DNA from: a virus
Taxonomy: Duplodnaviria; Heunggongvirae; Uroviricota; Caudoviricetes
Strand: one strand, 5' to 3'
Virus record (IMG/VR): IMGVR_UViG_2671181127_000010
Location: 1 to 10,681 of that record
DNA length: 10,681 nucleotides
A program made the position numbers and the translations under genes. Of this stretch, positions 2,766 through 4,156 are shown piece after piece (positions within the stretch are counted from its first letter, which is position 1; the number at the start of each line of letters is the position of its first letter). The notes under the pieces were generated by a model that did no database searches, had not been told where the DNA came from, and saw nothing but the letters and a program-made list of their open reading frames with translations.

Positions 2766-2800
2766 GAAGCCCCGCACTGTTGGAGCAGTAACGGGGCTTC
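2766..2800 (+). other. Stem-loop in the 5' leader of the Ash operon (GAAGCCCCG ... CGGGGCTTC)
   Basis: Perfect 9-bp GC-rich inverted repeat with 17-nt loop, 28 bp upstream of the 2829 start codon; no T-run, so not a canonical terminator. Confidence 0.3.
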
Positions 2801-2828
2801 TAACCAACAACGTAAACTAGGAGCCGTT

Positions 2829-3386
2829 ATGGTTGCTGTAAATCATATACCACACCTTGTACACACACAAACGGCCTTTGTGTGGCGTTTTCTGGCCCTG
2901 AATATCGGAGAAAAAAACCGCTTGATCGCCACCAGCAAAAATGGCTATGATTCCCGCGCACCTCATAAAACGGGTGTCGGGATTAGCCTCCTGAAAACAA
3001 CTGAAGCGCACAGCACGCGCCCTGCGTGTTTTTTTGTGCCGCATAGTCACACCTTATCAATGGTGGGCTGTACGGGGGCGGAGCAATCCGCGCCGGTTTC
3101 TTCAGTGTCCGGTAAGGCTAACCCTGTACAGTCCGCCACCAGCGAAATTAGCCTTTTGCGTGGCGGTTATCTTAACCACACTGAGGAGGCTGCCAACATG
3201 GCTACTATCCCTACCCTTGTACATTCTCAAACCGCATTTATCTGGCGCTTTATCATCTTTGGCGCGTCAGAATCTCAAATCATCCACGTAACCGCCTGGA
3301 CGGAACGCGAAGCGCGTAGCCGTTGCCCGTCAGGTTGTGTTGCTGTATTCGCCGCCCGTATTCGTCAGGGGTCACATCATGCGTAA
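2829..3386 (+). CDS. Ash-family-like protein with C-terminal Icd-like domain (185 aa)
   Basis: RBS TAGGAG 6 nt upstream of ATG. Contains two copies of the motif VH.QTAF.WRF and a C-terminal TEREAR...VFAARIRQG block, which I recall as the signature of Ash / Icd-like small proteins of P4-type islands (family name from memory, not verified). Confidence 0.55.
   Translation: MVAVNHIPHLVHTQTAFVWRFLALNIGEKNRLIATSKNGYDSRAPHKTGVGISLLKTTEAHSTRPACFFVPHSHTLSMVGCTGAEQSAPVSSVSGKANPVQSATSEISLLRGGYLNHTEEAANMATIPTLVHSQTAFIWRFIIFGASESQIIHVTAWTEREARSRCPSGCVAVFAARIRQGSHHA
3198..3386 (+). CDS. Icd-like small protein, 62 aa: in-frame internal start inside the 2829..3386 ORF
   Basis: Strong RBS GAGGAGG 7 nt upstream of internal ATG 3198; product MATIPTLVHSQTAFIWRF...TEREARSR...VFAARIRQG is a complete Icd-like unit. 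Could be a separately translated nested product. Confidence 0.4.
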   Translation: MATIPTLVHSQTAFIWRFIIFGASESQIIHVTAWTEREARSRCPSGCVAVFAARIRQGSHHA

Positions 3387-3843
3387 AAACCGCTTGCAAA
3401 AAATTATAACGGGGCTGTATGCTTCCCCAGTCGCCCACATGGCGACCGGGTTTAGCAGCCTGAATACTACAGCGGACAGCCGCTTACATTCCGATATGCG
3501 GTTTTTTTGTGTCCGTAAACCTACCCATACCCGCATTATGGCGGGGCGTAACGGGGGAGCCTTTGCGCTCGCTGGTTCCTGTAGTGCCAGTCTGCTAACC
3601 CTGTTACGTCTCGCCACCCCGTTTAGCAGCGTAGTAGCGAGACTCCTTAATTTCACTACAGGAGCCTTTCACATGGCTGTATTCACACGCCCTTATTTTG
3701 TCTGGCGCTTTATGCAGTGCCACCACAGCAGCATTGATATTTACACCGTTACCGCAGCCACTGAACGCGAAGCCCGCGCCCAGTTGCCGCACGCACATCT
3801 GATTTTTGTCGCCCGTATTCGTCAGGGGGTGTGCCATGCCTGA
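3379..3843 (+). CDS. Ash-family-like paralog with C-terminal Icd-like domain (154 aa from ATG 3379)
   Basis: Motifs FFCVRKPTHTRIMAG (paralogous to CFFVPHSHTLSMVG in the upstream gene) and YFVWRF...TEREARAQ...IFVARIRQG. Start 3379 overlaps the upstream stop by 8 nt; the ORF-track start 3337 is probably an over-extension. Confidence 0.55.
   Translation: MRKNRLQKIITGLYASPVAHMATGFSSLNTTADSRLHSDMRFFCVRKPTHTRIMAGRNGGAFALAGSCSASLLTLLRLATPFSSVVARLLNFTTGAFHMAVFTRPYFVWRFMQCHHSSIDIYTVTAATEREARAQLPHAHLIFVARIRQGVCHA
3673..3843 (+). CDS. Icd-like small protein, 56 aa: in-frame internal start inside the 3379..3843 ORF
   Basis: RBS CAGGAG 8 nt upstream of ATG 3673; product MAVFTRPYFVWRF...TEREARAQ...VARIRQG. 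Confidence 0.35.
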   Translation: MAVFTRPYFVWRFMQCHHSSIDIYTVTAATEREARAQLPHAHLIFVARIRQGVCHA

Positions 3844-4156
3844 TATGTCAAATTACCAGTACCTGATTAATCCGCATTTTAAGTGTGATCATGATATTGC
3901 TAAGAAGGTTTATTCCGCTGCTTATGGGGCTACTGACAATATATCAATGGGTATTGCGTCAATTGGTAGCCTGATGTGGTATGCGTCAGAAAATAAGGAA
4001 TATGACGAAAAGGCCATGCGCATTGATATGGGTAATATCGGTTTGTTACTGGCAATGCTTGGGCAGTTTGATATTTCGTTACGGTGCACCATTGAAAATG
4101 CCAAAGATGCATTAAATGCTATAAAGAAAGCGAATACTGATTTAAATCGGGGATAA
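3836..4156 (+). CDS. Hypothetical protein, 106 aa, AT-rich cargo-like gene
   Basis: ATG 3836 with RBS GGGGGTG, overlaps upstream stop (ATGCCTGA). About 35% GC in the first 60 nt versus clearly more GC-rich flanking genes. No recognisable motif. Confidence 0.55.
   Translation: MPDMSNYQYLINPHFKCDHDIAKKVYSAAYGATDNISMGIASIGSLMWYASENKEYDEKAMRIDMGNIGLLLAMLGQFDISLRCTIENAKDALNAIKKANTDLNRG

Follow-up and report, generated by a model that had tools for sequence, protein, structure and literature searches.

Two tandem units at positions 2829 to 3843

The window, that is, the whole stretch of 10,681 nucleotides (nt) analyzed here from the viral record IMGVR_UViG_2671181127_000010, carries at positions 2829 to 3843 two tandem units that resemble the antisense-RNA immunity regions of the phages P4 and P1. 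Each unit is predicted to contain, in this order, a promoter-like site, a leader with upstream target sites and a hairpin with a U-run, a C4/CI-type RNA some 88 nt long, a second group of target sites downstream, which includes a site lying over a Shine-Dalgarno (SD) sequence, and a short Icd/Kil-like open reading frame (ORF). The short ORFs, referred to as icd#1 and icd#2, close two long ORFs, which were listed as a 185-amino-acid (aa) ORF at 2829-3386 (ORF1) and a 168-aa ORF at 3337-3843 with a GTG start at 3337 (ORF2). ORF2 probably starts at ATG 3379, which overlaps the icd#1 stop codon (ATGCGTAA), rather than at GTG 3337; the Prokaryotic Genome Annotation Pipeline (PGAP) starts the gene at this ATG in relatives. 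The features are collected in Table 1, in which the element names follow the nomenclature of P1 (PMC5320573): b' is the loop pairing at the ribosome-binding site, and a' is the junction element.

A preliminary description of this region had recognized two diverged copies of one unit, and all of the elements that it described are present where it placed them. Homology between the two full copies extends from AAACCGCTTG (2915 and 3387) to the stop codons (3386 and 3843), the mean column identity in an alignment of 2829-3386 with 3387-3843 is 72%, and the two long ORFs are 35% identical (BLASTP E=3e-14). A repeat search returned direct-repeat families with spacings of 360 and 457-460 nt, including three copies of the "F.WRF" coding stretch (2877, 3237, and 3697) and two copies of the C-terminal stretches. 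The motif FxWRF...TEREAR...F.ARIRQG had been counted three times; two full copies were confirmed, whereas the copy at about 2865-2895 is an N-terminal fragment only, without the TEREAR or ARIRQG part. This fragment (2829-2912) corresponds to the N-terminal third of an Icd-like gene (IPHLVHTQTAFVWRF versus IPTLVHSQTAFIWRF, BLASTP E=7e-10). The first 29 residues of ORF1 match the N terminus of the nested 62-aa ORF, and a direct repeat (2846-2891 and 3206-3251) links the fragment to icd#1.

The second motif, FF.V....HT..M.G, occurs twice, as described (CFFVPHSHTLSMVG, nt ~3026-3067; RFFCVRKPTHTRIMAG, nt ~3499-3546). In nucleotides it consists of a conserved TTTTTTTGTG run at 3029 and 3502 and then the 5' end of the C4 RNA (AUGGUGGGC and AUGGCGGGG); what was read as a protein motif is thus a translation of the U-run and of the 5' strand that opens the C4 closing stem. 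Internal starts equipped with ribosome-binding sites are likewise present: GAGGAGG (3183-3189) and AGGAG (3660-3664) each lie 8 nt upstream of an ATG, at 3198 and 3673, respectively. Such nesting of a short ORF with its own ribosome-binding site has a documented precedent in P4, where kil (65 aa) is nested in eta, which also contains a constitutive promoter, according to the summary of Forti et al. 1999 in PMC10111431. Both short ORFs pass the cutoff (25 bits) of the NCBIfam model NF033153 (phage_ICD_like; host cell division inhibitor Icd-like), which also matches the C-terminal ~45 aa of both long ORFs.

Table 1. Features of the two tandem units in the window, ordered by position
Feature	Position	Strand	Evidence and remarks
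Icd-like N-terminal fragment	2829..2912	+	SD AGGAG 2819-2823, ATG 2829; fused in frame downstream; start of long ORF1 (2829-3386)
Promoter-like site, unit 1	2922..2951	+	TTGATC-18 nt-TATGAT; 9/12 consensus positions (consensus scan); ends 7 nt before isrK match
Unit-1 leader (isrK/P4 seqA type)	2958..3037	+	Rfam RF01394 isrK, 63.6 bits at 2958-3034; gathering 50
Unit-1 leader parts	a1 TTAGCCT 2983-2989; b1 ACTGAAG 3000-3006; hairpin 3012-3030 and U-run	+	Terminator-like site; motif positions
C4/CI-type antisense RNA gene #1	3056..3143	+	Rfam RF01695, 75.4 bits; gathering 45
C4#1 elements	Loop UUUCUUCAGUGU 3097-3108 (b'); junction AAGGCUAA 3114-3121 (a')	+	
C4#1 downstream targets	3148..3189	+	a2 TTAGCCTT 3148-3155; b2 ACACTGAGGAGG 3178-3189, holds icd#1 SD GAGGAGG
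Icd/Kil-like ORF #1 (icd#1), 62 aa	3198..3386	+	NCBIfam NF033153, 59.6 bits; aligns with P4 Kil and P1-like Icd
Long ORF2, 154 aa, eta-like	3379..3843	+	Reads through promoter-like site 2, leader 2, and C4#2 into icd#2
Promoter-like site, unit 2	3394..3423	+	TTGCAA-18 nt-TATGCT; weak, 8/12; ends 7 nt before isrK-like match
Unit-2 leader	3417..3511	+	c4-a1b1 RF03163 at 3417-3466; isrK-like at 3430-3508 (permissive Rfam)
Unit-2 leader parts	a1 TTAGCAG 3452-3458; b1 ACTACAG 3466-3472; hairpin ~3478-3503; U-run 3502-3508	+	
C4/CI-type antisense RNA gene #2	3534..3621	+	Rfam RF01695, 72.2 bits; loop UUCCUGUAGUG 3576-3586 (b'); junction CUGCUAA 3592-3598 (a')
C4#2 downstream targets	3623..3664	+	a2 TTAGCAG 3623-3629; b2 CACTACAGGAG 3654-3664, holds icd#2 SD AGGAG
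Icd/Kil-like ORF #2 (icd#2), 56 aa	3673..3843	+	NCBIfam NF033153, 55.1 bits; stop overlaps ATG 3836 (ATGCCTGA)

Predicted antisense RNAs, their targets, and co-variation among relatives

Both C4 matches cover the full-length RF01695 model on the plus strand and lie within the upstream halves of the two long ORFs. The minimum free energies of C4#1 and C4#2 are -47.1 kcal/mol (z=-5.5) and -45.4 kcal/mol (z=-4.5), respectively, and both folds reproduce the structure of the family, a long closing stem around two hairpins with the loop and junction elements single-stranded. GGU/GGC at the 5' end of the closing stem resembles the RNase P site of P1 (PMC5320573), which is only suggestive of RNase P processing. 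The leaders are each preceded by a putative promoter, and the site in unit 2 is homologous in position to that in unit 1.

Duplex energies were calculated for the loop and junction elements alone, since pairing of the whole second hairpin is swamped by non-specific pairing of the G+C-rich stems. The C4#1 loop forms 12 contiguous pairs with its own site ACACUGAGGAGG (3178-3189, with the SD inside) at -15.0 kcal/mol, compared with -5.7 kcal/mol on the unit-2 site, and the C4#2 loop pairs with its own site CACUACAGGAG (3654-3664, again with the SD inside) at -16.4 kcal/mol, compared with -10.0 kcal/mol on the unit-1 site. The two junctions match the respective a2 sites at 3148 and 3623, and target sites of both kinds (a and b) are repeated upstream in the leader of each unit. 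Cognate duplexes were stronger than cross pairs in all eight comparisons of loop with SD and of junction with target. The two cassettes are thereby predicted to recognize different sequences and, because these recognition sequences differ, would form two separate locks in series. The SD of ATG 2829 was also considered as a third C4 target and was rejected, its best duplexes (-10.7 and -8.3 kcal/mol) needing internal loops.

The 1.9-kb region matches 1,699 of 5,426 complete Escherichia coli genomes, with a best match of 94% identity. PGAP annotates the 94%-identical E. coli locus, in order, as a partial Icd-like pseudogene, a partial Ash pseudogene, a 62-aa Icd-like protein, a 154-aa Icd-like protein, DUF4222, and a primase. 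As the 62-aa protein gave only 2 loci in species-representative genomes, IMG/VR viral contigs were surveyed instead, and 159 loci around relatives of the two short ORFs were sampled. Searches with nhmmer detected 100 C4 copies in these loci, every one with an Icd-like domain within 200 nt downstream. Besides icd alone (83 loci), the architectures were icd-C4-icd (29 loci), C4-icd (21 loci), icdN-C4-icd (12 loci), the window's own type icdN-C4-icd-C4-icd (10 loci), and C4-icd-C4-icd (8 loci), where icdN denotes the N-terminal fragment. The icd-alone loci (L005, L052-L086, and L119-L165; IMG/VR and Shigella) had no C4 by nhmmer, which Rfam at gathering score confirmed for 8 of them. Some of them lie on prophage-sized contigs of 30-55 kb, and some carry an Icd domain that ends a 230-330-aa open frame without a Pfam match.

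The specificity elements of the RNAs and their targets change together. Among 30 unique modules, taken from C4 to the icd ATG, the backbones are nearly invariant and fall into two lineages, while 17 loops and 9 junctions occur in 22 combinations, each matched by its own targets. The mean energy of the loop with the downstream site is -13.4 kcal/mol for cognate pairs and -6.2 kcal/mol for non-cognate pairs, and for loop and junction, with upstream and downstream sites, none of 5,000 permutations was as good as the cognate arrangement. An alignment-free test, comparing cognate with non-cognate energies and using permutations, was chosen because a loop gap introduced by MAFFT set the two backbone lineages one column out of register. 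Where two modules stand in tandem, all 10 distinct combinations have different specificities in the two positions. Furthermore, four loci (L043, L045, L005, and L053) contain one intact icd whose 5' part matches window positions 2767-2912 (92-97% identity) and whose 3' part matches the window from 3215 onward; therefore, the unit-1 RNA cassette sits between diverged direct repeats of the icd 5' end. The modules are mosaic.

Pattern scans of viral contigs, which returned 10 stretches for unit 1 and 9 for unit 2, gave no evidence that helper phages carry cognate targets. All unit-1 matches are on contigs of 4-18 kb, most of them already among those surveyed. The same is true of only about three unit-2 matches; the rest are on environmental metagenome contigs (one of 192 kb) and have odd spacing, and their number is, by a rough estimate, close to what chance would give for 19 specified bases.

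Probable immunity cassettes and alternative readings of the long frames

Taken together, positions 2829 to 3843 very probably represent two tandem antisense-RNA immunity cassettes of the P4 (seqA-cI-seqC-kil/eta) and P1 (c4-icd) type and constitute the immunity and early-control region of a satellite of the phage-inducible chromosomal island (PICI) type. Direct support comes from the RNA family matches, from the complementarity and its co-variation, from the conserved open frames, and from the layout, which is identical in P4. On the left-operon strand of the P4 genome, Rfam places c4-a1b1 and isrK at 8705-8615 and then C4 (the CI RNA) at 8507-8420, the same order as in the window. A hexamer pair (TTGCCT-18-TATAGT) ends 7 nt before the P4 isrK/seqA leader match, and upstream of the RNA lie a hairpin and TTTTTTTGTG. 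The open P4 frame of 214 codons (8812-8168) ends in 65 residues that begin MATTLTPSHPEFVFVF; ahead of these stands TTCACAGGAGG, which is complementary to the CI loop CCUGUGAA. In P4 as in the window, a long open frame is closed by an Icd/Kil-like ORF of 56-65 aa whose SD is complementary to the loop. The same stop/start overlap, RTGCGTAA, leads to the next gene at P4 kil/epsilon (GTGCGTAA) and at window position 3379, and primase genes lie downstream in both. In contrast to the window, with its two cassettes in series and its Icd N-terminal fragment, P4 has one cassette (PLE, seqA, cI RNA, seqC, and kil nested in eta), and its loop differs from those of the window (CUUCAGUGU and CCUGUAGUG). 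Furthermore, P4 eta is reportedly coupled to an upstream alpA-like gene, whereas ORF1 starts at the start codon of the Icd fragment, beside a divergent YlcI/YnfO-like gene.

The immI region of P1 and P7 (c4-icd-ant1/2) shares the RNA family, for which a P1-like phage scores 75.9 bits. In P1, a' and b' pair with a2 and b2, and b2 lies at the icd ribosome-binding site (mechanism in PMC5320573 and PMC8198154). In one and the same alignment, the P1-like Icd is 42% and P4 Kil 30% identical to icd#1. C4 starts 142 nt before the ATG in the P1-like phage, P4, and unit 1, compared with 139 nt in unit 2. Unlike the window, in which the operon appears to control replication genes, P1 has a single copy whose operon controls an antirepressor, and the P1-like locus has no isrK match at gathering score. 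The isrK-orf45 (STnc1160)-anrP locus of Gifsy-1 has an isrK leader with a terminator and then a C4-like processed RNA inside a translated ORF (PMC4825925). The same study describes orf45 as a translated frame, coupled to the gene that follows it, that is conserved in nucleotides but varies in protein sequence, and IsrK as a structural homolog of the P4 seqA RNA (PMC4825925). As at 3379 in the window, the orf45 stop overlaps the next start. Gifsy-1 differs in that an antiterminator regulator and antQ lie downstream, in place of an Icd-like peptide and primase, and in that IsrK is described as a trans-acting activator (PMC4825925).

Specificity within a common scaffold is reportedly also the basis of heteroimmunity among P4-like elements such as the retronphage phiR73, for which Sabbattini et al. 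are said to have found, in 1996, that bases in seqB, seqA, and seqC set the immunity specificity. In the phiR73 type, specificities are said to be split among elements, whereas the window holds two in one element.

The mechanism is known, and C4 and isrK matches in Gram-negative PICIs have been noted before (PMC10111431); its steps are carried over here from P1, P4, and Gifsy-1. The C4-type RNA would be excised from the leader transcript and, by pairing with targets on new transcripts, would mask the icd ribosome-binding site. Left untranslated, these transcripts would be terminated, and we propose that the downstream replication genes are therefore silent. Translation of a long ORF from upstream (from ATG 2829 for ORF1 and, coupled to the icd#1 stop, from ATG 3379 for ORF2) would carry ribosomes across the RNA gene and its targets and so override the block. 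PMC10111431 states that in P4 CI is processed from a terminated transcript, that Kil is translated on read-through, and that termination is prevented when full-length Eta is made from a late promoter farther upstream, while eta nonsense mutations cause it. In P4, the RNA-dependent termination involves a Rho-dependent site in kil and is relieved when kil or eta is translated. P4 Kil is division inhibiting or toxic when expressed, according to the same paper, and so is P1 Icd, as cited in PMC8198154.

Several points weigh against this reading. RNA processing, termination, the override by translation, and the two-lock logic are inferred by analogy. The unit-2 promoter-like site agrees with the consensus at no more than 8 of 12 positions and falls short of the scan threshold, and the unit-2 leader is below the Rfam gathering scores both for c4-a1b1 (43.0 versus 46.7 bits; E=3.8e-9) and for isrK (36.6 versus 50 bits; E=6.9e-6), with a hairpin loop of 14 nt in its predicted fold. 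Independence of the two locks may be incomplete, because the unit-1 SD region can also be bound by the C4#2 loop, at -10.0 kcal/mol. In one locus (L006, Escherichia albertii, 1360-1503), a stop codon interrupts the frame 25 codons before the icd ATG, and in another (L043, 1828-1968) the interval is one base shorter and the long ORF2 frame is lost. Finally, the relatives are close (two backbone lineages plus P4 and P1), and the open-frame counts given below are only partly independent evidence.

The preliminary description had taken the region for two tandem protein-coding Ash-Icd fusion genes, each giving two functional isoforms, the long Ash-Icd protein and a free peptide of about 60 aa, which we consider improbable. 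Both long frames are open and conserved in relatives, and ORF1 matches Pfam PF10554 (Phage_ASH; 44.2 bits, gathering 26) over aa 40-133. However, these residues correspond to nt 2946-3227, that is, to the isrK leader, C4, the target sites, and the first icd codons, and Pfam gave no Phage_ASH match in ORF2 at E<=0.1. The same model spans the translated seqA-CI-seqC of P4 eta (residues 37-161 of the P4 frame; locus L003, 8330-8704) and the c4 gene of the P1-like phage (locus L004, 1572-1778). PF10554 seems to model largely non-coding RNA genes read in one frame, and the ORF1 match would, because of these alignments, reflect RNA genes. PGAP annotates the 154-aa Icd-like protein in relatives, but it makes ORF1 two partial pseudogenes in the closest E. 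coli relative. Among 23 unique ORF2-like relatives, the variable columns by codon position number 19/18/33 in the Icd part and 6/6/2 in each of the isrK-like and C4 parts. Because the third-position excess of the Icd part has no counterpart upstream, the N-terminal extension appears not to evolve as a protein although its frame is kept, and the "Ash" part of the long ORFs would be the in-frame translation of RNA genes rather than primarily a protein module. P4 eta is translated (Forti et al. 1999, via PMC10111431), and the homologous orf45 in Gifsy-1 shows the same conservation of nucleotides over protein. If the long form is translated, it is likely the act of translation that matters, as shown for P4 eta and Gifsy-1 orf45; nothing points to a second protein isoform.

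The missing coding-type pattern upstream of the internal ATGs could also mean that function is confined to the RNAs and the short Icd-like ORFs and that the long ORFs are never translated, their frames being open by accident in G+C-rich, structure-constrained RNA. We regard this as unlikely, though not negligibly so. A second frame is open across C4 in 9 of the 30 modules, and the frames are broken in L006 and L043, but the Icd frame is open in 29 of 30 and the third frame in none. The Icd N-terminal fragment is in frame with the downstream Icd in all 13 unique relatives, at 7 spacings (189-396 nt) that are all multiples of 3, and 18 of 20 unique intervals retain the ATGnnTAA overlap together with a frame that stays open as far as the second Icd. 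The same openness in P4 and the P1-like phage, the termination caused by eta nonsense mutations, and the translated and coupled orf45 are not expected of accidental frames either. It is very improbable that either cassette is a duplicate that has lost its function and is decaying. Recombination relics are present (the Icd fragment at 2829-2912 and the stretch at 2927-2945 resembling the C4#1 3' end), and the promoter and leader of unit 2 score below those of unit 1; yet both C4 genes are far above the gathering score, both Icd ORFs are above the NCBIfam cutoff, and both units are perfectly or near-perfectly complementary to both of their own target pairs. In addition, the specificities differ between the two positions in every tandem combination, and 7 different loops occur in the unit-2-type modules of relatives, every one with a matching target, which requires ongoing selection.

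Within the reading of the region as two immunity cassettes, we tentatively suggest that these form a combinatorial lock wired through translation, a possibility that we hold to be somewhat doubtful. Ribosomes ending icd#1 would re-initiate at the overlapping ATG 3379 and read through leader 2, C4#2, and its targets. Lock 2 would then have no effect on transcripts that have passed lock 1 but would be the only control on those started at promoter 2, and silencing of the replication genes would, as proposed, therefore need both RNAs. If this is true, an incoming island would be excluded by a resident one only when it matches both of its specificities, and the resident island would also act on competitors by exporting two distinct repressor RNAs. 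The loop and junction variants, which reassort among modules, would in that case make up an immunity code, with diversifying selection acting on it among co-resident satellites.

The tandem arrangement, the overlapping start/stop wiring, and the breadth of co-varying specificities were not found described in the literature searched. Genes annotated as "Ash family protein" or as long "Icd-like protein" in thousands of enterobacterial islands would, on this reading, largely encode immunity RNAs and their targets. Tandem cassettes and the many co-varying loop/target pairs suggest a diversified RNA-based immunity code in satellites, which could decide which satellites coexist and which exclude each other. 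For experimental work, the modules also provide orthogonal antisense-RNA/target pairs in a small set that occurs naturally.

Neighboring genes and repeats

The window also encodes an integrase, an AlpA-like protein, the divergent YlcI/YnfO-like protein, DUF4222, a D5_N/DUF5906 primase, SSB, PerC, capsid E, and head decoration proteins, and its gene layout is that of Gram-negative PICI-type satellites (PMC10111431). The next ORF after icd#2 (3836-4156, 106 aa) has no Pfam match and is followed by DUF4222 and the primase. Its ATG overlaps the icd#2 stop with the same geometry as at 3379 and at P4 kil/epsilon, which suggests a chain of translational coupling down to the primase.

Several repeats lie upstream of or within the first unit. 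Between the YlcI/YnfO-like gene and ORF1, the intergenic stretch 2671-2731 contains GTGAATACCA twice in direct orientation (2674 and 2719), with an inverted copy, TGGTATTCAC, between them (2698). This arrangement looks like an operator set for a regulator; a weak Rfam match to "mir-499" at permissive settings corresponds to the same repeat. A perfect 9-bp inverted repeat (GAAGCCCCG and CGGGGCTTC) with a 17-nt loop occupies 2766-2800, about 20 nt upstream of the SD of ATG 2829. Within the spacer of the unit-1 promoter-like site, positions 2927-2945 (CGCCACCAGCAAAAATGGC) are 84% identical to 3134-3152, the 3' end of C4#1 plus a2 (CGCCACCAGCGAAATTAGC), and may be a relic of an older module junction.

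On the minus strand, the YlcI/YnfO-like gene (2325-2810) is overlapped by a 286-aa ORF on the plus strand (1960-2820). The YlcI/YnfO NCBIfam match covers residues 69-110 of the 161-aa minus-strand ORF, and in relatives PGAP annotates a 59-65-aa YlcI/YnfO protein together with a partial plus-strand pseudogene.

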